From contig CANQIL010000001.1 of the NCBI GenBank assembly GCA_947624045.1, forward strand, positions 28,978 through 92,977: a stretch of 64,000 bases of DNA, in the 5' to 3' direction. Below, one piece after another: positions 28,690-62,775 of this stretch; within the stretch, counting starts at the first letter, position 1; the number at the start of each line of letters is the position of its first letter. The DNA comes from an uncultured Bacilli bacterium (GTDB lineage Bacteria; Bacillota_I; Bacilli_A; RF39; UBA660). Below the pieces are notes generated by a model. The model had not been told where the DNA came from. It ran no database searches and saw nothing but the letters and a program-made list of their open reading frames with translations. The position numbers and the translations under genes were made by a program.

Positions 28690-29598
28690 TTAATTTTTAG
28701 TTTCTAAAGACATTATTTCAAGTAAACGATTTAAATCATTGGTGTTGACAAAGCTTATTTCTATTTTTTTGTTTTTGATTTTTACTTTGGTGCCTAGCTT
28801 TTCACATAATTCTTCTTCTAGATATTTGTATTCATTAGTTGGAGTGTGTTTGGTGATTTGATGAGTTCTTACATATTTTTCTTTGGATGTTGTTAGTTCT
28901 TCAAGAGCGTGAACGCTTAGGCCCTCATCTATAACTTTGGTTGCTAGTTGTTTTTGTTGCTCAACATCATCAAGTTTACTAAGAACGCGGGCGTGGCCCA
29001 TAGAAATAAGTTTTTGACCAACTTGGTCTTGAATTTCTTTTGGTAAAGTTAGTATGCCTAACATATTGGTAATGTGACTACGACTTTTACCTAGTCTTTT
29101 AGATAGTTCTTCTTGGGTTAGAGCTAGGGTTTCTTGAAGTTTTTTGTAGGCATTTGCTTCTTCGATAGCGTTTAGGTTTTCTCTTTGAAGATTTTCAAGT
29201 AAGGCAATTTCCATCATTTCGGTATCATTAAAGTCGCGCACAATGGCAGGTATTTCTTCTAGGCCGGCTAAAAGAGAAGCTTTAACACGACGTTCACCGG
29301 CTATTATTTCATAACCTTTGATACTTTTTTTGATGATAATTGGTTGGAAAACACCGTGTTCTTTTATTGAGGTTGCTAGTTCTTCTAGGGCTTGTTGGTC
29401 GAAGACTTTACGTGGTTGATATGGGTTTGCGCGTAGGTCTTTTAGTTTTACTTTGATTATGCCCTCTTTGGGTGTTTCGTTAATTATCTTTTCTTCTACT
29501 CGACTGTAGTCTAAAATTTCATTGTTAAATAGTTCTTCTAGGCCACGACCTAGAGCTCTTCTTTTTGGAGCGGTAGCGTTATTGTTAGTTGTTTCCAT
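28690..29598 (-). CDS. parB: chromosome partitioning protein ParB/Spo0J
   Basis: RRALGRGLEELF and the arginine patch IIAGERR. ParB-type HTH region GKSRSHITNMLGILTLP...GHAR. Confidence 0.93.
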   Translation of the reverse strand: METTNNNATAPKRRALGRGLEELFNNEILDYSRVEEKIINETPKEGIIKVKLKDLRANPYQPRKVFDQQALEELATSIKEHGVFQPIIIKKSIKGYEIIAGERRVKASLLAGLEEIPAIVRDFNDTEMMEIALLENLQRENLNAIEEANAYKKLQETLALTQEELSKRLGKSRSHITNMLGILTLPKEIQDQVGQKLISMGHARVLSKLDDVEQQKQLATKVIDEGLSVHALEELTTSKEKYVRTHQITKHTPTNEYKYLEEELCEKLGTKVKIKNKKIEISFVNTNDLNRLLEIMSLETKN

Positions 29599-30373
29599 TA
29601 CGAGAAATCACTTCCTTTGCTAGATTAATGTAGGCTTCTGAGCCTCTACTTTTGGGGTCATAAGCAACAATTGGCTCGCCGTGTGAGGGAGCTTCGGTTA
29701 ATCTGACTAAGCGGGGAATTATGGTATTGTAAACTTTTTCTTTGAAAAATTTTCTTATGTCATCGACTACTTCAAAGCCTAAGTTTGTTCTAGAATCAAG
29801 CATTGTTAAAAGGACACCCTCGATGTCTAGGGTTGGGTTTAAGTTCTTTTGAGCAAGCATTATTGTTTTTAAAAGTTGAGTTATTCCCTCTAGTGCGAAG
29901 AATTCACATTGAACAGGTATGATGACGGAATTAGCGGCAGTTAAGGCATTGGTAGTAATGATACCTAGTGATGGTGGGCAGTCTATTATGATATAGTCAA
30001 AGCTATCTTTTATGTCTTGCATTCTTATTTTTAATTGCTCACCTTTGTTGAAGTTGTTTTCTTGATGACTTTTTTCGACTAATTCGATGTCTAAACCGGC
30101 TAAGTTAATGGTAGCAGGAAGAACGTATAAATTTTTGTATTTTGTTTTAATCATTGCTTCTGAAATGTTACACTCCCCTATTAAGACATCATATATGCTT
30201 CTTTCTATGTCGCCTTTATTTATACCTACTCCGGTAGTGGTATTGCCTTGGGGGTCTAAATCAATTAATAAAACTTTTTTACCTAGTACGGCTAAGGAAG
30301 CTGATAAATTGATGCTTGTTGTAGTTTTGCCTACTCCACCTTTTTGATTTACTAATGCTATTACTTTTCCCAT
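29585..30373 (-). CDS. parA: chromosome partitioning ATPase ParA/Soj
   Basis: Deviant Walker A NQKGGVGKTTT. Overlaps parB by 14 nt. Confidence 0.95.
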   Translation of the reverse strand: MGKVIALVNQKGGVGKTTTSINLSASLAVLGKKVLLIDLDPQGNTTTGVGINKGDIERSIYDVLIGECNISEAMIKTKYKNLYVLPATINLAGLDIELVEKSHQENNFNKGEQLKIRMQDIKDSFDYIIIDCPPSLGIITTNALTAANSVIIPVQCEFFALEGITQLLKTIMLAQKNLNPTLDIEGVLLTMLDSRTNLGFEVVDDIRKFFKEKVYNTIIPRLVRLTEAPSHGEPIVAYDPKSRGSEAYINLAKEVISRNGNN

Positions 30374-30724: not shown

Positions 30725-31807
30725 GTGTTTTTAAAAGAGATGAGAGAAAAAAAGGAAAAGAGCATTTTTCAATATAAAAGAAATAAATTTTTGAAAAATA
30801 TTTTTAATAATATTGGGGAAATTTATGAAGATGATAAGAATATTACTTGTGTTGTAAAACAGGAATTGTTGGAAAAGACTAAGAAAAGGGATTTTTATAA
30901 ACTTAATTTGTATGGTATTAGTGATATTTTCTATAAGGAAATGAATTATTTTAAATTAAATAAAAACGTTCATTATATTTTTGAGGGTATTGTTTTTGAT
31001 AAGCCATTGATGATTTATTCACATTACTGCGATATTACTTTTAAGAATTGTGTTTTTAATAATGCTAATATAAAGATATTTTATGCCGATAAAATTACTT
31101 TTAGTGATAATAAATATTATTGTGATGATAAGGTAGTGCAAGATACTTTTTTGAAAACGAATATGACGGAAGTTGATGAGTTACTTTTTATAAAGGAAAA
31201 ATTTGAAAATGGGACTTGTAGTGAGAAAAAGAGTAATGGAACTTGGGAAGATTTGTTAGTTTTAAAAATGAGCGATAGTGAAGATAGTTCTAAAATGTTA
31301 GAGAAAGGACATTCATTTGAAAAAGGGAAAGAGGAAAATAAGCATTTTGGAATTGATGTTAAGGCTAAGAAAATTATTATAAAAGATTCTTTGGTAAATA
31401 CTGGAGGTAATTGTGATGTTACGGTAAAAGCAAAGGAAGTTGATATTGATAATTCTACTATTGTAGGGGGCAATATTTTTATAAAGTCTGATTATGTTAA
31501 AAATGATAATAGTGTAATTGAGGCTTTAAAAATTGTGAATGTTACTAATGATGAAAAAAATTGTGATTTAGAGAGTGAAAATTCTAGAATAAATGGGCAT
31601 TTTGTTATTTTAAATGGGTTGGCAAGACAAAATAATGATAATAAAAATAGTGTTGAGAGTGCTAAAAAGTTAAGTAAAAAAAGAATGGAACTTATAGGAA
31701 TGCTTGCTAAGATTAGAGATATGTGTAATAAAGATGTTGAGGAAAGAGTGCTTGAATTTAGGACTCAAGAAGAAAAGAAAAATATAAAAATGTTATTAAA
31801 AAAATAA
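30725..31807 (+). CDS. hypothetical protein (no TM segment or signal seen)
   Basis: 360-aa ORF with GTG start preceded by AGGAGGGG. Inserted between parA and noc on the opposite strand. No motif recognised. Confidence 0.55.
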   Translation: MFLKEMREKKEKSIFQYKRNKFLKNIFNNIGEIYEDDKNITCVVKQELLEKTKKRDFYKLNLYGISDIFYKEMNYFKLNKNVHYIFEGIVFDKPLMIYSHYCDITFKNCVFNNANIKIFYADKITFSDNKYYCDDKVVQDTFLKTNMTEVDELLFIKEKFENGTCSEKKSNGTWEDLLVLKMSDSEDSSKMLEKGHSFEKGKEENKHFGIDVKAKKIIIKDSLVNTGGNCDVTVKAKEVDIDNSTIVGGNIFIKSDYVKNDNSVIEALKIVNVTNDEKNCDLESENSRINGHFVILNGLARQNNDNKNSVESAKKLSKKRMELIGMLAKIRDMCNKDVEERVLEFRTQEEKKNIKMLLKK

Positions 31808-31819
31808 AGAACAAATAGG

Positions 31820-33205
31820 TTATTCGCCTGCTTGTTCTTTTTCTTCGCTTTCTGCTTGTGGTAATTGGTCTTTTTCAATTTTTATTATCATTTGATAAGA
31901 TTTATCAAAGTGCATTTCGTCGTAAGAAGCTTTGATACTGTGGTCGTTTAGGTCTTTGATTAAATCTTTTAATTTGGTTGTTGCTTGTTCTAGGGTGTAG
32001 GTTGTACTTTGCATATCATCAGTTACACTTTTTACAGATGTAAGTTGAGAGTTTTGAGAATTTATAGTTGGTATCATTGTTGGAATGTTTATGGCAGAAA
32101 GGTCTGGTGTTTTGAAGTAGTCTTCGGTTGATTCCATTTCTGTTGAATCGGTTTTTACTATTTTTTCGGCAGGTGTTATAAAATTAGTGTCAGTATCGCC
32201 TGTTGGTACTTTAGCATTGTTTAAGTTTAACATATTGTCTAAGTCGGCGGCATTTTCTGAGGTGTTATTTATATCCATAGAATTTTCTTTTACATTGTCA
32301 ATATCAACAGGGATAATTGATGAATCTAAGCCACCGGGTTGTTCAGTTTCATCGTCGTCATCGTCATCTTCAATTTCGCCATAATTGATAAATTTAGGAA
32401 TACCGGCAGGCATTTCTTCGCCGTCTGGTGGCGCAATTGTAACTTTGCCATAATTTGATGTGTCTTCTGGTAGGTCGGCAGTTGGCATTAATGGAGATGT
32501 ATTAACAAAGTTGTTAATTGAAGGTGTCTGCTCTGGTGCTTGGTCGGTTGGTGTTGAAATTTCAGACTCTGATGTTGACTCGTCTTGTTCTTTTGGATAT
32601 TCCTTTTTAATTTCTTCTTCTAATTGGCGAACACTCATTTTGGTATCAATAATTTGTTTTAACATATCCTTTTGTTTTTTGGCATCAGGTATGTTTAGTA
32701 AAGACCTAGCGTGGCGCTCAGATATTTGCTCTTTTAAAAGGGCTTCTTGAATTTCTTCTGGTAAAGATAGTAATCTTATTTTATTCGCAACGGCAGATTG
32801 ACTTTTGCCCATTGTTTTAGCTAGTTCTTCTTGGGTCATTTCATCTATTTCTAGTATCTTTTGGTAAGTTCTAGCTTCTTCGATAGCATTAAGATTTTTT
32901 CTTTGTAAATTTTCAAGAAGTGCTACTTTGGAGCTTTCTTTATCATCTAAATCTCTTATGATAGCAGGTATTTTAGTAAGGCCTGCTAAGGCAGAGGCTT
33001 TGTATCGTCTTTCACCGGCTATTATTTCATATTTGCCATTGACACTTCTTACTATTATAGGTTGAATTACACCGTGTTCTTTTATAGATACAGCTAGTTC
33101 TTTCAATGCTTTTTCATCAAAGACTTCTCGTGGTTGAAATCTATTTGGAATTATATCGTCTAAATGTAATAATACAACTTCATCTTTTTCTTTATCTTGA
33201 TTCAT
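31820..33205 (-). CDS. noc: Noc-like ParB-family nucleoid occlusion protein with a long low-complexity insertion
   Basis: NRFQPR and IIAGERR. Noc-type HTH signature GKSQSAVANKIRLL...SERHAR (compare parB SRSHITNMLGIL...GHAR). Sits next to rsmG as Bacillus noc does. 461 aa against about 280 expected. Confidence 0.8.
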   Translation of the reverse strand: MNQDKEKDEVVLLHLDDIIPNRFQPREVFDEKALKELAVSIKEHGVIQPIIVRSVNGKYEIIAGERRYKASALAGLTKIPAIIRDLDDKESSKVALLENLQRKNLNAIEEARTYQKILEIDEMTQEELAKTMGKSQSAVANKIRLLSLPEEIQEALLKEQISERHARSLLNIPDAKKQKDMLKQIIDTKMSVRQLEEEIKKEYPKEQDESTSESEISTPTDQAPEQTPSINNFVNTSPLMPTADLPEDTSNYGKVTIAPPDGEEMPAGIPKFINYGEIEDDDDDDETEQPGGLDSSIIPVDIDNVKENSMDINNTSENAADLDNMLNLNNAKVPTGDTDTNFITPAEKIVKTDSTEMESTEDYFKTPDLSAINIPTMIPTINSQNSQLTSVKSVTDDMQSTTYTLEQATTKLKDLIKDLNDHSIKASYDEMHFDKSYQMIIKIEKDQLPQAESEEKEQAGE

Positions 33206-33364: not shown

Positions 33365-34000
33365 TTATTTATTTTTCATAACGACTAAGCTTCTAGTACT
33401 ATTTTCGATAGGTAAAGTAAAAGTTTCTATGCTTACAATTTTATATTTTGAAGATAATTTGTTTTGGACTTCCTCATTTAATTCTTCTGAGATGTTGCCT
33501 TTCATTGCGATAAAGATGCCCTCTTTTTTTACTAAAGGCATTGTGTAAGTTACAAGCTTTTCTATGTTCGCAACGGCTCTAGCGGTAACTATGTCGTATT
33601 TTTCTTTGTGAAACTCCCCTCTTTCGTGGATAGCTCTTATGTCTGTAAGGGAAAGTTTGGTGATAATGTCATTTAGATAAGTTACTCTTTTTTGAAGAGC
33701 ATCTAGTAAAGTTATGTTTAAATTAGGAAAAACTATTTTTAATACTATACCGGGGAATCCGGCTCCACTGCCTACATCACATAAGGTGAGATTTTTAGTT
33801 AAATCAACTACTTTAATGAGGGTAAGACTATCGTAGAAGTGTTTCAAATAAACTTCGTTTTTCGTTGTGATTGTGGTTAAGTTAATCTTGTCATTCCACT
33901 CAATTAATAGCGTATAAAATGTTTCTAGTTGAGCTAGTTGCTTGTCCGTTAAAGAGATATTTAGTTTGGCTAGTTCGGTAATAAATTCTTCTTTAGTCAT
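33365..34000 (-). CDS. rsmG: 16S rRNA (guanine527-N7)-methyltransferase
   Basis: SAM motif DVGSGAGFPG. Overlaps the mnmG stop. Confidence 0.93.
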   Translation of the reverse strand: MTKEEFITELAKLNISLTDKQLAQLETFYTLLIEWNDKINLTTITTKNEVYLKHFYDSLTLIKVVDLTKNLTLCDVGSGAGFPGIVLKIVFPNLNITLLDALQKRVTYLNDIITKLSLTDIRAIHERGEFHKEKYDIVTARAVANIEKLVTYTMPLVKKEGIFIAMKGNISEELNEEVQNKLSSKYKIVSIETFTLPIENSTRSLVVMKNK

Positions 34001-39599: not shown

Positions 39600-39790
39600 T
39601 TTGTGGGATATTGTTGTTAGGGGAGTGTGGATAAATTTTTAGAAAAATATTTTATCCACAAGAAATAGTGGATAACTATTGAGATGAAATATGGGTAAAG
39701 AGGTGTTTTTCACAATTTCAACAGACTTGTGGAAAGACTTTTCAATAGATGTTAATAGAAAAGTTGTGGAAAATGTGGAAAACTAAGGAA
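39600..39790. promoter_or_regulatory. oriC: oriC DnaA-box cluster upstream of dnaA
   Basis: Perfect boxes TGTGGATAA (39626-39634) and TTATCCACA (39652-39660). One-mismatch boxes at 39667-39675, 39765-39773 and 39774-39782. Confidence 0.8.
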
Positions 39791-39935
39791 AAGCTTGTAG
39801 TATAAAGATTTAAGTTGTTGAAAAAATTGGGGATTAATTGTTGATAAAAATTTTTGTAAAAATTGGGTTTATTTTTTTGAAAAATTGGGTTATAGTAAAC
39901 GTAACTTGATTTTATTCTTGTGGGGAGATGGTAGA

Positions 39936-42579: not shown

Positions 42580-42742
42580 TTATAAGAATTAAAAGAAGAA
42601 TTTTCTTAAAAATATTAAAAAAGTTCTTTTTTTTATGCAAATTTTTAAATTTATTACTAATAATATATATGAAAAGGAAAATTTTATTCATTTTTCGACA
42701 AAATAAGACAAAATTCGACAAAAGAAAGTGCTAATATGTAAG

Positions 42743-42771
42743 TGGAAAACGCGGGTACTAGACGTTTTCCA
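42743..42771. repeat. inverted repeat in the comK-like leader
   Basis: TGGAAAACG, 11 nt, CGTTTTCCA (perfect 9-bp arms). Preceded by the direct repeats TTCGACAAAA twice. Confidence 0.35.
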
Positions 42772-42787
42772 TATAGGGGGAATTAAA

Positions 42788-43240
42788 ATGAAATATGAAG
42801 TAAATTATGGTACACTGGCAATAATGCCAAATAATACTGATGACAGCTTAGTTTATGAAGATGAACAAAGATATCTTGTTGATGGGACACCTTTTGAAAT
42901 AATGGAAGATAGTTGCCGTTATTTTGGAAGTACTTATGAGGGAAGAAAAGAAAGTGCTAAGGCTATTTTAGGTGCTGAATATAAAGTACCGATAATTGTT
43001 GAGGATACTAATAATTTGATAGTCTTTCCAACAACATCACCATCAGCAAATGACTGTATTTGGATATCACTAAATAGGATAAGAAAATTTGAGCCTATTG
43101 ATAATCAACATACAAAAATTATTTTTGATAATGAAATGGAAATTATCGTTCCATCAACTTATAGAAGTATACAAAATCAAGTTTCTAGAGCAACAAGATT
43201 AGATTACATAATAAGAAAAAGAAAAAATCCACAAGTTTAA
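42788..43240 (+). CDS. comK: ComK-family competence transcription factor homolog
   Basis: YEVNYGTLAIMP, SCRYFGSTYEGRK, KVPIIV...IVFPTTS and NQV.R motifs collinear with remembered B. subtilis ComK. GGGGGA lies upstream of this ATG. Confidence 0.8.
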   Translation: MKYEVNYGTLAIMPNNTDDSLVYEDEQRYLVDGTPFEIMEDSCRYFGSTYEGRKESAKAILGAEYKVPIIVEDTNNLIVFPTTSPSANDCIWISLNRIRKFEPIDNQHTKIIFDNEMEIIVPSTYRSIQNQVSRATRLDYIIRKRKNPQV

Positions 43241-48955: not shown

Positions 48956-49235
48956 TTAAAGTAAAAAATTAACTTAGTTATAAAGGGTAAATCGATAGTG
49001 GTTTACTCTTTTTTTGTAAAATAGTTTTGTGTTTTATGTAAATTTTTGTCTGTGGAAAAAATATTTTTTGAGTAGAATAGTTTTTTCTTTTGAATTAATG
49101 TGTTAGAAATTTGTAGATATTTTATGTGAGTGTAATAGTAACAGGTATTTTGATAATTAGTTTAAATAGTTATATTACTATCACTGTAAAAATTGTGTCT
49201 GTGGATATTTATTTTATAAAAATATATAGTAAATT

Positions 49236-49249
49236 ATTTCCCGGGAAAT
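49236..49249. promoter_or_regulatory. Noc-binding site (NBS), perfect ATTTCCCGGGAAAT
   Basis: Exact match to the B. subtilis NBS palindrome. Embedded in a 24-bp perfect palindrome AAATTATTTCCCGGGAAATAATTT. Confidence 0.75.
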
Positions 49250-49294
49250 AATTTAGTGAAAATGAAGATAAAATATTATAAGCAAAAAATATAA

Positions 49295-49310
49295 TGTTCC
49301 ACGTGAAACA
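49295..49310. promoter_or_regulatory. parS: parS centromere site, perfect TGTTCCACGTGAAACA
   Basis: Exact 16/16 match to the Firmicute parS consensus TGTTNCACGTGAAACA. Confidence 0.85.
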
Positions 49311-49591
49311 ACAATTCAAATTTGAAATGTGTTTTTATTATTTTTAGTTAATTATTTAAAGTCAAAAAATTGTGGTAATTGAAATAAAAATTATCTTATT
49401 TTTTAATAATTTAATATAATGTCATTATCAATATGTCGAAGTGTGCTTTTTAATCAATTGTTAAAGATAGACGAAGAAAGTATTTAGATATCTATTTATT
49501 ATTTTGATATTTATTAAAATTAATAGATATTTTGCTTAATGATGTAAAATTGTGTCTGTGGATATTTTATTTTATATAACTATAGTAAATT

Positions 49592-49605
49592 ATTTCCCGG
49601 TAAAT
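49592..49605. promoter_or_regulatory. NBS-like site with one mismatch (ATTTCCCGGTAAAT)
   Basis: 13/14 match to the NBS. Same flanks as the other copies. Confidence 0.55.
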
Positions 49606-49646
49606 AATTTGCTGAAATAAAGATAAAATATTATAAGAAAATGAAA

Positions 49647-49662
49647 TGTTTCACGTGGAACA
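49647..49662. promoter_or_regulatory. parS: parS site, perfect (TGTTTCACGTGGAACA, opposite orientation)
   Basis: Reverse complement of TGTTCCACGTGAAACA. Confidence 0.85.
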
Positions 49663-49698
49663 TAGTAGATATATGGTAAAACTAACATAAGAAAAAAT

Positions 49699-49712
49699 AT
49701 TTCCCGGGAAAT
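49699..49712. promoter_or_regulatory. NBS, perfect ATTTCCCGGGAAAT
   Basis: Exact match. Confidence 0.75.
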
Positions 49713-49754
49713 AATTTATTGGAAAAGAAGATAAAATATTATAAGAAAATGAAA

Positions 49755-49770
49755 TGTTTCACGTGGAACA
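49755..49770. promoter_or_regulatory. parS: parS site, perfect (TGTTTCACGTGGAACA)
   Basis: Exact match in reverse orientation. Confidence 0.85.
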
Positions 49771-49806
49771 TAGTAGATATATGGTAAAACTAACATAAGA
49801 AAAAAT

Positions 49807-49820
49807 ATTTCCCGGGAAAT
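49807..49820. promoter_or_regulatory. NBS, perfect ATTTCCCGGGAAAT
   Basis: Exact match. Confidence 0.75.
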
Positions 49821-49862
49821 AATTTATTGGAAAAGAAGATAAAATATTATAAGCAAATATAA

Positions 49863-49878
49863 TGTTCCACGTGAAACA
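49863..49878. promoter_or_regulatory. parS: parS site, perfect TGTTCCACGTGAAACA
   Basis: Exact match. Confidence 0.85.
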
Positions 49879-50315
49879 TTAAATTAGTATTTACTTTTTT
49901 TATTCTTGTCTTTGACAGTTGTTGAATGAAATAACTCTCTAAACTATTAAAAAATAAGGAAAAAATGAGAGCTTTTTTTCTCAAAAAAGTTGCGTACCTT
50001 TCTACTTATTTAATCACTAGAAAAATTTTTTTAGAAATTAGTTAAAAGCTTGTTTTTAAGCCAAATTCTTGAGGTACATTCATTTTTATACAGTTTATGT
50101 CTTACAAATGTTACTCCTTTAGATAGTATTATTATAGGATTCAAATTTAAAATCTTCTATTATCTTTTATTAATCATTTATAGTCATTTGTAGAATCTAT
50201 TTTTAGTTTTAATAATTTAATTATCTCATGACAGGTTGTTTTTTAGAACAAGTGTCAAAGATAGGTGGATATTTTATTTTATAAAAATTTATTGAAATAT
50301 TATAAGAAAATAAAA

Positions 50316-50331
50316 TGTTTCACGTGGAACA
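50316..50331. promoter_or_regulatory. parS: parS site, perfect (TGTTTCACGTGGAACA)
   Basis: Exact match in reverse orientation. Confidence 0.85.
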
Positions 50332-50375
50332 TAGTAGATATATGGTAAAACTAATAACTAAACATAAGAAAAAAT

Positions 50376-50389
50376 ATTTCCCGGGAAAT
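50376..50389. promoter_or_regulatory. NBS, perfect ATTTCCCGGGAAAT
   Basis: Exact match. Confidence 0.75.
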
Positions 50390-50429
50390 AATTTACTAAA
50401 ATAAAAATAAAAATTATAAGAAAATACAA

Positions 50430-50445
50430 TGTTCCACGTGAAACA
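50430..50445. promoter_or_regulatory. parS: parS site, perfect TGTTCCACGTGAAACA
   Basis: Exact match, about 50 nt upstream of the SRP RNA. Confidence 0.85.
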
Positions 50446-50489
50446 TTAAATTAGTATTTACTTTTTTTTTATAATAATATAAAATATGT

Positions 50490-50566
50490 TTGTGCAATGA
50501 AAGTGATTGAAACAGGTCAGGATTGGAAAATAGCAGCCTTAAGGTCCTCCTTTCATGTGCACTTTT
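50490..50566 (+). ncRNA. ffs: small (4.5S-type) signal recognition particle RNA
   Basis: Domain IV core CAGGUCAGGAUUGGAAAAUAGCAGCCUUAAGG parallels E. coli CAGGUCAGGUCCGGAAGGAAGCAGCCAAGG (GGAA tetraloop, AGCAGCC). Closing helix GUGCAAUGAAAG / CUUUCAUGUGCAC, then a T run. Confidence 0.8.
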
Positions 50567-50587
50567 TATTTTGGAGTTGAAAAAATT

Positions 50588-51031
50588 ATGAAAAATGAGT
50601 TTTTTGATTTGGCTTTTGCTGAAGCTGAAAAAGCTTTTAACATAAATGAAGTCCCTATTGGTGCTGTTATTGTTAAAGATGGAAAAATTATTGCTAAAGG
50701 TCATAATATTAAGGAAAATCAACGAAATGTTATTTGCCATGCTGAGATGTTAGCTATTAATGAAGCTTCAAAAGTTTTAAATAATTGGCGTTTAAGCGAC
50801 TGCGATATTTATGTAACTTTGGATCCTTGTCCGATGTGTGCTAGTGCAATTAAGCAAGCTAGAATTAAAAACGTATATTCTGCTTTAGAAAATTTGGATA
50901 AATCTAATAGTGAGATTGTTAATAGAATTTTTGAAAATTCTGATATAAATTCGGCTACTAATTTTATTACTAATTTATCTGTGGAAAAAGCTAAAAATTT
51001 AATGCAGTCTTTTTTTAAAAATAGACGATAA
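50588..51031 (+). CDS. tadA: tRNA-specific adenosine deaminase
   Basis: Zinc motifs CHAEMLAI and PCPMC. Start at MKNEFF (GGAG upstream), because the ORF-track start at 50555 lies inside the SRP RNA. Confidence 0.9.
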   Translation: MKNEFFDLAFAEAEKAFNINEVPIGAVIVKDGKIIAKGHNIKENQRNVICHAEMLAINEASKVLNNWRLSDCDIYVTLDPCPMCASAIKQARIKNVYSALENLDKSNSEIVNRIFENSDINSATNFITNLSVEKAKNLMQSFFKNRR

Positions 51032-51081
51032 ATTAACGATTTCTTATGATATAATTGATATAGATGGAGGTGCTCTTTTTA

Positions 51082-52779
51082 ATGTATCAAGCTTTGTATA
51101 GAAAGTATCGTCCAACTGATTTTAATTCGGTTGTAGGTCAGGATAGTATTATAAGAACTTTAAAAAATTCGATTATTAATAAAACCTTTACCCATGCATA
51201 TATGTTTTTTGGTCCTAGGGGTACTGGAAAAACGACTATTTCTAAAATTTTTGCTCGTAGTATTAATTGCTTGGAGCCAGTGGATGGTGTTGCTTGTGGA
51301 AAGTGTAAAAATTGTCTAGAATCTTTTAAAAATTCTTGTGTGGATATTATTGAAATTGATGCTGCGTCAAATAATGGTGTTGATGAGATTAGGGAACTTA
51401 GAAGTAAGGTTTCTTTAGTACCTGCGGAATTAAAATATAAAGTTTATATTATTGATGAAGTTCATATGTTATCAATTGGTGCTTTTAATGCCTTGTTGAA
51501 AACTTTAGAGGAACCGCCTGAGCATGTAGTTTTTATTTTAGCAACTACTGACCCACAGAAAGTTCCGGAGACTATTATTTCTAGATGTCAATGTTTTTCT
51601 TTTAAGCGAATTTCTACTGATATGATTGTGGATAGGTTAAAATTTATATGTTCAGAGGAAAATATTTCTATTGATGATGATGTTTTAACTGAAATTGCTA
51701 CATCTTCGGAAGGTGGAATGCGTGATGCTTTAGGTTCTTTGGACAAATTATCTTCTTTTTCAAATTCTAAAATTACTTTAGATGATTTTTATGAGTTAAA
51801 TGGGATGATTACTAAAGGTGAATTAAAGAATTTTTATGATAATTTATTTAGTTATAATATTTCAGAAGTTTTAAAATTAATTTCTGATTATAATAGTGGA
51901 GGTAAAAATTTAATTCAAATATTTACACAAATTATGTTTTCAGTGCGAAATATGATTGTGGATTTTTATATTTCAGGTGTGCAAAGTTCTTATAATGTTG
52001 ATTTAATGCAAGATTTTGTAAATTTAATAAACGAAAATATGTTCGATATAAAAAGAAGCGGAAATCCTAAAATATTTCTGGAAATGTTGGTTATTAAGTT
52101 TATAAAGGAGCATGAATCTTCAAAGTCAACGGATGTTATTGTTAATAAAGAAGAAGTAGTCGTTCAAAGTAATAATGTGGAGAAAGAAGTAAAAAAGGTA
52201 AAAAAAACTGTGGAAATTACGGAAGATAAACCGGTAGAAATTATTTCCCGGGAAATAATTGATGAGAAAAATATTTCCCGGGAAATAAAATTGGATACTT
52301 TGCCAGTTAAAAATATTCAAGAAATTATGGATGCTAGGGTTAATAATATTATGGCTTTGGCTGATAAGAATATTTTAAAGTTGGAAATGCAGAAATTTCA
52401 GTTACTAAATGATTATACGTTTGATCAAAATATAGGATATTTAGTTTGTAGTTTGTTAGATGCTAAGATAAGAGCTGCTAGTGATAAGGGTATTATAATT
52501 AGTTATGAATATGATTCTAATGTTAAGCAAAATTTAATTAATTTAGATAAATTGGTGGAAGTTTATAACAAAATTACAAAATCTAATAAAAGTTTGGCTA
52601 TTATTAGTGATGAAAAATGGGAAATTGAAAAAAATAAGTATATAAAGGCTTTAAAAGAGGGAAAAAAATATCAAGTTATGGAAGAACCTGAAGAAGTCTT
52701 GGAAGAAATTGAAAATAATGATATAATATCAAGTAGTAGTGCAGTTGAGCTTTTTGGCGATATTGTCGAAGTTGAATAG
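51082..52779 (+). CDS. dnaX: DNA polymerase III subunit gamma/tau
   Basis: MYQALYRKYRP, Walker A GPRGTGKTT, zinc module CGKCKNC, and the SRC motif. GGAGGTG lies 9 nt upstream. Confidence 0.95.
   Translation: MYQALYRKYRPTDFNSVVGQDSIIRTLKNSIINKTFTHAYMFFGPRGTGKTTISKIFARSINCLEPVDGVACGKCKNCLESFKNSCVDIIEIDAASNNGVDEIRELRSKVSLVPAELKYKVYIIDEVHMLSIGAFNALLKTLEEPPEHVVFILATTDPQKVPETIISRCQCFSFKRISTDMIVDRLKFICSEENISIDDDVLTEIATSSEGGMRDALGSLDKLSSFSNSKITLDDFYELNGMITKGELKNFYDNLFSYNISEVLKLISDYNSGGKNLIQIFTQIMFSVRNMIVDFYISGVQSSYNVDLMQDFVNLINENMFDIKRSGNPKIFLEMLVIKFIKEHESSKSTDVIVNKEEVVVQSNNVEKEVKKVKKTVEITEDKPVEIISREIIDEKNISREIKLDTLPVKNIQEIMDARVNNIMALADKNILKLEMQKFQLLNDYTFDQNIGYLVCSLLDAKIRAASDKGIIISYEYDSNVKQNLINLDKLVEVYNKITKSNKSLAIISDEKWEIEKNKYIKALKEGKKYQVMEEPEEVLEEIENNDIISSSSAVELFGDIVEVE
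52243..52256. promoter_or_regulatory. NBS, perfect ATTTCCCGGGAAAT, inside the dnaX coding sequence
   Basis: Exact match read in frame as I-S-R-E-I. The flanks extend the palindrome (AAATTATTTCCCGGGAAATAATT). Confidence 0.7.
52273..52286. promoter_or_regulatory. NBS, perfect ATTTCCCGGGAAAT, inside the dnaX coding sequence
   Basis: Exact match 30 bp after the first, again read as I-S-R-E-I. Confidence 0.7.
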
Positions 52780-62539: not shown

Positions 62540-62775
62540 CATAAATGTTGTGAAGAAGAGTTTTATAATTAAATGGCTATTGAAGAGAACTCTTGGATGG
62601 TGTGAAAGAGTATAGTTAAATTATAAAATATGGCTTTGGAGCAGTTATATCGATAGGTAGGTATAAACGTTAATAGGCGTTAACTATTAAGAAGTGTATA
62701 ATACAAGCTATTATAAAATAAGGTGGTACCGCGATTAATCGTCCTTATGTTATGGTAGCTTTTTTATTTTAAGGA
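62540..62775 (+). promoter_or_regulatory. T-box riboswitch leader (methionine specifier)
   Basis: Conserved T-box GGTGGTACCGCG at 62722-62733. Stem I with an AGAGA-type bulge and a candidate AUG specifier at 62573-62575. Downstream helix plus TTTTTT before metG. Confidence 0.8.

Follow-up and report, generated by a model that had tools for sequence, protein, structure and literature searches.

Noc nucleates on a 16-bp Noc-binding site (NBS) and spreads as a CTP-dependent clamp onto neighbouring DNA (PMC8429893); ParB likewise clamps at parS and loads SMC (PMC8429893, PMC7333895). The NBS consensus was defined in Bacillus subtilis as a 16-bp palindrome, TATTTCCCGGGAAATA, with the 14-bp core ATTTCCCGGGAAAT (PMC7383237, PMC8429893). 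The core consensus is the same for Noc of Staphylococcus aureus, which occupies 8-10 kb of DNA around each of its sites (PMC5540599). About 70 NBS are found in B. subtilis and 41 in S. aureus, singly scattered over the origin-proximal chromosome (PMC4331003, PMC5540599). Here we describe a stretch of 64,000 nucleotides from an uncultured Bacilli bacterium (the window, meaning the whole stretch), in which two perfect copies of this palindrome lie in frame within dnaX, the gene for the tau/clamp-loader subunit of DNA polymerase III. We consider it likely, with a probability of roughly 0.75, that these copies are functional Noc-type loading sites under purifying selection at the level of the DNA, a reading drawn from sequence comparison.

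The dnaX palindromes have the same 14-bp core and 16-bp palindrome as the NBS of B. subtilis and S. aureus. In those species the sites are scattered singly, and the classical distribution leaves the terminus free; within the 64 kb considered here they form tandem arrays interleaved with parS and have a conserved satellite in dnaX. As in the parS clusters of Streptomyces coelicolor, Listeria innocua, Caulobacter and Pseudomonas, perfect TGTTNCACGTGNAACA sites are clustered within ~10 kb of oriC, and Spo0J/ParB and Soj/ParA are encoded nearby. In contrast to these clusters, the sites here belong to a regular composite repeat of ~108-125 bp, in which each parS is paired with a putative site of the Noc paralogue, and some lineages have parS in frame within the dnaX linker. 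The reason for parS clustering, and the number of sites required, are acknowledged as open questions in the field (PMC7333895). A literature search of incomplete coverage gave no account of NBS or parS in dnaX, of NBS arrays interleaved with parS, of a coding-linker satellite that persists through frame changes and is an NBS in some lineages and parS in others, or of an anchor-less Noc lineage; the supplementary tables of S. aureus Noc chromatin immunoprecipitation held nothing on dnaX, gyrA or recR. ParB-family sites within genes are known in principle. Lin and Grossman reportedly described in 1998 a parS site within the coding sequence of B. subtilis spo0J, which would likewise be a ParB-family site in frame in an origin-near gene. 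The host here is, by contrast, the unconstrained dnaX linker, where the site was kept across a frame change and NBS and parS were exchanged among lineages.

Two NBS palindromes in the dnaX linker

Within dnaX, ATTTCCCGGGAAAT occurs twice without mismatch at a spacing of 30 bp, and a flanking T and A extend each copy to the full 16-bp palindrome (coordinates in Table 1). Both copies are in frame 0 and are read ATT TCC CGG GAA ATA, or I-S-R-E-I, in the protein context ...KPVEIISREIIDEKNISREIKLD...; copy 1 is at amino acid (aa) 394 of the long open reading frame (ORF) and at aa 388 of the called protein. Given the base composition, chance would yield 1.6e-4 exact copies of the 14-mer per 64 kb. 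When up to two mismatches were allowed, seven matches were observed in the window compared with 0.42 in shuffled sequences. The codons used are rare: TCC makes up 7.3% of the serine codons and CGG 2.0% of the arginine codons of the window, and the TCC-CGG dicodon occurs only at the two dnaX sites among 16,846 codons. These data bear out a preliminary description of this DNA, which had pointed to two perfect palindromes 30 bp apart in the same frame and to TCC and CGG as atypical codons. It had also tied copy 1 to the intergenic copy at 49236 by a common extended palindrome. An identity of 23 nt is indeed real (from 52238 in dnaX and from 49231 in the spacer), but it marks no special link between the two. 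It is no sign of specific copying because it equals the family consensus of the relatives, a clade of uncultured Bacilli from rumen and gut metagenomes: the extended consensus of all clade NBS is AAAAWTATTTCCCGGGAAATAWTTT, and the flanks of 59 perfect clade NBS are strongly biased (AAAAWT-ATTTCCCGGGAAAT-AWTTT, with several positions at 86-100%). This bias is also the reason why K-N recurs before ISREI and I or N-N after it.

The sites lie in a linker between clamp-loader domain III and the C-terminal tau domain. In profile searches the dnaX_nterm model covers aa 8-342 of DnaX, and the Pfam domains stop near aa 226-240. In the DnaX alignment, the columns between the end of dnaX_nterm and the conserved C-terminal block are without conservation and variable in length. 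The unconserved linker corresponds to ~52110-52310, in agreement with the initial placement of the sites in a poorly conserved region ahead of the tau domain. The dnaX start called in public assemblies probably corresponds to 51082. Just past domain III, an in-frame A AAA AAG heptamer, the Escherichia coli dnaX frameshift sequence, is found at 52191-52197; the -1 frame after it stops at 52227-52229, 14 nt ahead of the first NBS. This heptamer is probably a chance product of the lysine-rich, AT-rich linker.

Conservation of the DNA across reading frames

Relatives are labelled L001 and onwards; the close ones (L162-L167) were retrieved by exact-protein look-up. DnaX of L162, L163 and L164 is ~70-75% identical to that of the window. 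Across these four species copy 2 forms an invariant island of 17/17 nt, TATTTCCCGGGAAATAA, whereas the rest of the linker has 17% invariant columns, a longest invariant run of 4 and is otherwise unalignable. Copy 1 is perfect only in the window; L162 has it with one mismatch and L163 in a decayed form, and L164 lacks it. Because of this pattern, copy 1 looks like a younger duplicate, formed within the subclade and constrained less strongly or not at all. Copy 2 is, on this comparison, the conserved and ancestral copy of the subclade. An insertion of the palindrome into a tolerant linker, which had been offered as one explanation of the sites, is partly right for copy 1 as an apparent duplication within the subclade.

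At 60-66% DnaX identity most relatives have a site directly after domain III (aa ~350). At this place L167 encodes NISREII (perfect NBS, frame 0), L166 encodes NYFPGNN (perfect NBS, +1 frame) and L165 encodes NISQEII (ATTTCCCAGGAAAT, one mismatch). The DNA of the three aligns at the same position, with 1-nt indels on both sides of the site. The +1 frame is also seen in L008, L076, L085 and L110, and frame 0 in L019 and L081. Wherever an orthologue with DNA examined has ISREI, it is encoded by the same five codons as in the window. Both ISQEI cases checked at the DNA level (L162 and L165) differ from the NBS by one base, located in the central CpG. In L006, L011 and L084 the dnaX linker carries two to three perfect parS, read VSRET, VPRET or VSRGT, and no NBS was found anywhere in these three loci. 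A third reading frame (FPGK) was considered for dnaX and rejected, since the sole DnaX match (P0097) is not an NBS at the DNA level; FPGK-frame NBS were seen only downstream of dnaX in L089. The preliminary description had taken ISREI encoded by different codons as the mark of protein-level selection. The reverse was found, with one DNA sequence read as different peptides. Together, the identical codons, the switch to YFPGN and the single CpG change behind ISQEI support the suggestion made there that selection acts on the DNA rather than on the protein at the dnaX sites.

Among the 120 closest DnaX proteins, which are not phylogenetically independent and whose encoding is inferred where only the protein is known, 106 have a linker peptide of the ISREI, YFPGN or ISQEI type (33 ISREI, 18 YFPGN, 54 ISQEI only and one other one-mismatch form); ISQEI stands beside ISREI in two. 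No recognisable site was found in the linker of the other 14. In 30 clade loci, the matches listed comprise 11 NBS and 7 parS in dnaX, all within the linker (aa 341-404), compared with 12 NBS and 5 parS in the other 324 kb. Taking the linker as ~300 bp per locus, NBS are enriched ~30-fold in it over other flanking sequence. Among the matches listed for 136 dnaX loci outside the clade (1.30 Mb from Firmicutes and beyond, with Bacillus, Staphylococcus, Streptococcus, lactobacilli and Clostridia), there was no perfect NBS or parS.

The recurrent one-mismatch variants of the NBS all alter the central CpG, to ATTTCCCAGGAAAT or ATTTCCTGGGAAAT (L162 11153, L165 11048, L009 1184, L082 5009, L166 8668; L003 7570, L009 5302). 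Two explanations offer themselves: binding tolerates changes at the palindrome centre, or the sites decay through cytosine methylation and deamination.

A parS/NBS array next to the origin

The window spans the replication origin, with dnaA, dnaN, recF, gyrB and gyrA rightward and rsmG, the Noc-type gene, soj and spo0J leftward. In the 1.5-kb spacer between gyrA and the signal recognition particle (SRP) RNA gene, six perfect parS (TGTTNCACGTGNAACA) alternate with four perfect NBS and one NBS with a single mismatch. The array spans 49189-50445. Its modules (N, perfect NBS; n, degenerate NBS; P, parS) follow the order N P (n) P N P N P ... P N P, and after them come the two NBS in dnaX. Besides two tandem composite units, the repeat search revealed a third, diverged unit at 50256-50363. 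Six perfect NBS and six perfect parS fall within 3 kb (49.2-52.3 kb), on the right side of dnaA/oriC at a distance of 9-12 kb. The remaining 61 kb of the window contain no NBS at up to two mismatches and no parS at fewer than two; because of this emptiness elsewhere, the dnaX sites can be regarded as downstream outliers of a putative 3-kb loading zone.

DnaA-box-like 9-mers with one mismatch are present on the minus strand at 49051, 49200 and 49557, the latter two as part of a recurring motif, AAAATTGTGTCTGTGGATATTT, that directly precedes NBS modules. The array was rejected as a DnaA-box cluster: boxes with one mismatch are common in the window (n = 49), and the true cluster is located upstream of dnaA.

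Arrays and coding-embedded sites in the clade

Alternating or mixed parS/NBS arrays were observed 0.6-1.5 kb upstream of dnaX in several relatives, in which the gene order from dnaA to mfd is kept. In L002, which has a circular chromosome of 1.52 Mb, alternation is strict with a period of ~125 bp. The period is ~119 bp in L082, and in L001 an NBS occurs every 62 bp with four one-mismatch parS interspersed. Arrays are also present in L163, L166, L081, L089 and others. Neither the interleaving of parS with the intergenic NBS nor the recurrence of arrays and linker sites across the clade had been part of the preliminary description.

Perfect NBS read in frame as ISREI or YFPGN are furthermore found in other origin-proximal housekeeping genes of relatives, up to ~4.4 kb downstream of dnaX: in holB (L008 9448, L009 3570), pth (L008 11199, L009 5302), rsmI (L003 11907) and methyltransferase genes (L007 10806, L076 10608). 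For some, two divergent species share the site at an identical residue. Because in-frame NBS are also carried by these genes, NBS inside coding sequence are, as far as these genomes tell, a general feature of the clade, which favours the dnaX linker for them.

Presumed readers of the two sites

The presumed NBS reader is a Noc-type ParB paralogue. Its gene adjoins rsmG (gidB) and is near the soj-spo0J pair and oriC, ~18 kb from dnaX, with one ORF between it and soj; that ORF runs on the opposite strand and gave no hit in Pfam or NCBIfam. Proximity to rsmG and parAB and residues of the Q173/K179/R201 type are shared with Noc of B. subtilis and S. aureus. Solved structures of Noc (7NFU, 7NG0 and 7OL9) match the protein with 196-216 bits, compared with 143-179 bits for ParB. 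The presumed parS reader Spo0J, conversely, matches B. subtilis Spo0J better than Noc (155-160 bits) and has the N-terminal LGRGL motif. Preference for parS or NBS is decided by the four positions 173, 179, 184 and 201 (PMC7383237). Q173 and R201 switch specificity, and one lysine, at 179 or 184, is enough (PMC7383237). In Caulobacter numbering, alignments to Noc structures give Q-K-S-R at these positions for the Noc-type protein; Spo0J has R-M-T-G. Based on the Q-K-S-R residues and the single-lysine rule, the Noc-type paralogue is predicted to prefer NBS. The genome hence encodes a candidate for the cognate Noc assumed at the outset, with NBS binding as a prediction from these residues.

In B. 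subtilis, the N-terminal helix of Noc is needed for membrane recruitment and nucleoid occlusion (PMC4331003). Inspection of the Noc-type protein did not reveal an N-terminal amphipathic membrane-targeting helix (~10 aa). Only 19 residues stand ahead of the NRFQPR motif, and the ATG has a good Shine-Dalgarno sequence; because a stop codon directly precedes this well-supported ATG, the protein lacks the helix, a point absent from the preliminary description. The short N-terminus (motif offset 19) is shared by 110 of the 120 closest Noc-type homologues, and 102 of them have QKSR. The protein also contains an extra linker of ~200 residues before the C-terminal domain, with the motifs NYGKVTIAPPDGEEMP, IPKFINYGEIE, NFITPAEKIVK and DYFKTPDLS, and this architecture is conserved among the same 120 homologues.

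Table 1. Coordinates of the dnaX sites, the origin-proximal array and the associated genes in the window.
Feature	Position	Strand	Evidence or remark
NBS copy 1 in dnaX	52243-52256 (16-bp palindrome 52242-52257)		perfect match; frame 0, I-S-R-E-I
NBS copy 2 in dnaX	52273-52286 (16-bp palindrome 52272-52287)		perfect match; I-S-R-E-I
dnaX (DNA polymerase III tau/clamp-loader subunit)	51064-52779	+	longest ORF; NF004046, 482 bits
Intergenic NBS, first array module	49236-49249		perfect match
parS, TGTTCCACGTGAAACA	49295-49310		perfect parS
Degenerate NBS, ATTTCCCGGTAAAT	49592-49605		1 mismatch
parS, TGTTTCACGTGGAACA	49647-49662		perfect parS
Intergenic NBS	49699-49712		perfect match
parS	49755-49770		perfect match
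Intergenic NBS	49807-49820		perfect match
parS	49863-49878		perfect match
parS	50316-50331		perfect match
Intergenic NBS	50376-50389		perfect match
parS	50430-50445		perfect match; SRP RNA gene 36 nt downstream
Two tandem ~108-bp composite repeat units (NBS, ~45 bp, parS, ~40 bp)	49587-49802	+	repeat search
Small SRP RNA gene (ffs), between array and tadA-dnaX	50481-50575	+	Rfam RF00169, 54.8 bits
DnaA-box cluster upstream of dnaA (oriC)	39626-39847		DnaA-box search
Noc-type ParB paralogue, 461 aa, presumed NBS reader	31820-33205	-	TIGR04285, 286.4 bits
Spo0J/ParB, 302 aa, presumed parS reader	28690-29598	-	Spo0J 6SDK match, 206 bits
Soj/ParA ATPase	29585-30373	-	ParA-family matches
rsmG	33365-34000		adjoins Noc-type gene
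360-aa ORF between Noc-type gene and soj	30725-31807	+	opposite strand

Other features of the window

The longest tadA ORF (50555-51031) reaches back into the 3' end of the SRP RNA gene, an overlap that is absent from public tadA calls (147 aa), which begin 33 nt further in. A small gene at 42728-43240 (+) belongs to the ComK family according to the annotation of relatives (PF06338 in L162, L163, L165 and L166), and its location between dnaN and recF is unusual for comK. A T-box leader was identified at 62541-62749 (Rfam RF00230, 111.6 bits); the gene downstream of it is an aminoacyl-tRNA synthetase in relatives.

Functional reading and alternatives

We propose that the dnaX palindromes act as loading sites for the Noc-type ParB paralogue of this genome. 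The ~3-kb zone next to oriC would then be a joint loading zone for both paralogues, with the tandem composite repeat as its core, and a Noc domain would be built beside, and overlapping, the ParB/SMC-loading domain. The dnaX sites would add Noc loading points 1.9 kb further on, past the SRP RNA gene, and the dnaX linker would be the nearest freely evolving stretch in an otherwise tightly packed region. Since this linker tolerates almost any peptide, it could carry a palindrome of 16-24 bp at the cost of a few rare codons. We infer binding and spreading at these sites, and with them effects on segregation, division or replication. Once loaded, the protein may tether DNA to the membrane via another motif, organise the origin, or control replication as in S. 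aureus.

Several observations weigh against this proposal. Copy 1, poorly kept in close relatives, may be dispensable. The commonest state of the linker is the one-mismatch ISQEI (the only form in 54 of 120), for which the ATTTCCCAGGAAAT encoding was confirmed in L162 and L165, and the homologue counts come from related, not independent, proteins. The presumed reader remains below the TIGR04285 cut-off of 315 bits, although this is still its best-scoring family, and it has S rather than K at position 184. It is not a canonical Noc, and its cellular role may differ from that of one. A more far-reaching and clearly tentative idea is that the Noc paralogue, with its membrane anchor lost, is no longer a classical nucleoid-occlusion factor but a second centromere-type clamp beside ParB on the interleaved array. 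Such a two-paralogue composite centromere, in this clade of small-genome gut and rumen Bacilli, might have recruited tolerant nearby sequence such as the dnaX linker to the array.

It is unlikely that the dnaX copies are neutral spill-over, duplicated or gene-converted from the array or from each other and tolerated while adding nothing. A local duplication would give two copies 30 bp apart with common flanks, as seen here, and the decay or absence of copy 1 in the closest relatives, the 14 homologues without a recognisable site and the nearest species-representative genomes, L001 and L002, which have no site in dnaX among the matches listed, all fit such an origin. The invariance of copy 2 over 17 nt in linkers that otherwise cannot be aligned does not, nor do the survival of the site in the same place after the reading frame had changed, its persistence despite rare codons and the ~30-fold enrichment in the linker. 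An element of the dnaX mRNA is very unlikely in our view, its hairpins slowing ribosomes, stabilising the message or aiding a shorter, gamma-like DnaX. In E. coli dnaX, -1 frameshifting at A AAA AAG is promoted by a hairpin ~6 nt downstream, the usual range being 5-9 nt. The window resembles this signal in the gene itself, in the place just past domain III, in the in-frame heptamer with its nearby -1 stop and in a strong downstream hairpin potential, the two copies pairing into a long hairpin (-33.8 kcal/mol, z = -5.25). Here, however, the hairpin begins at ~52238, ~41 nt after the heptamer, and a programmed frameshift signal was rejected for this spacing. Moreover, a generic hairpin need not be an exact NBS, whereas this palindrome is the exact sequence of a protein-binding site; the identical 16-24 bp are repeated between genes in the array, most relatives have a single site, and other lineages substitute parS, a different palindrome that is also present in their arrays.

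The palindromes might instead be the target of another factor, either a restriction-modification system recognising CCCGGG or an unrelated regulator. Indeed, all six CCCGGG hexamers of the window are within an NBS, and the recurrent decay at the central CpG would fit cytosine methylation. Conservation spans 16-24 bp and not 6, however, the sequence is the one established by experiment as the NBS in B. subtilis and S. aureus, and the sites are interleaved with parS and have a Noc-type reader encoded nearby, all of which makes a different factor highly improbable. We give least credence to the view that ISREI itself works as a peptide in the tau linker, for instance by binding a partner, with the palindrome as an incidental by-product. 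ISREI or ISQEI does recur in many DnaX homologues, but all verified cases of ISREI have the same rare codons, an encoding with an expected frequency of ~6e-4, and verified ISQEI is the same DNA with one base changed. The same position is read YFPGN elsewhere, and other lineages have parS-encoded VSRET or VPRET, or nothing. A protein motif was rejected on the basis of codon identity and the frame switch.

Implications

ParB and Noc are the textbook pair for divergence of protein and site after gene duplication. The clade described here is a natural system in which parS and NBS, with two differing positions per half-site, are maintained in register next to one another, and either type of site has colonised the same coding linker. 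One site read as ISREI or as YFPGN would be a very clean case of DNA selection overriding the reading frame. The apparently anchor-less Noc lineage offers a test of whether NBS binding serves functions beyond nucleoid occlusion. For annotation and protein-motif mining, a "conserved peptide" found in a disordered linker can simply reflect an underlying DNA site. On the tentative idea of a composite centromere, a protein-coding segment of dnaX would be shaped chiefly by its role as a chromosome-organising DNA site.

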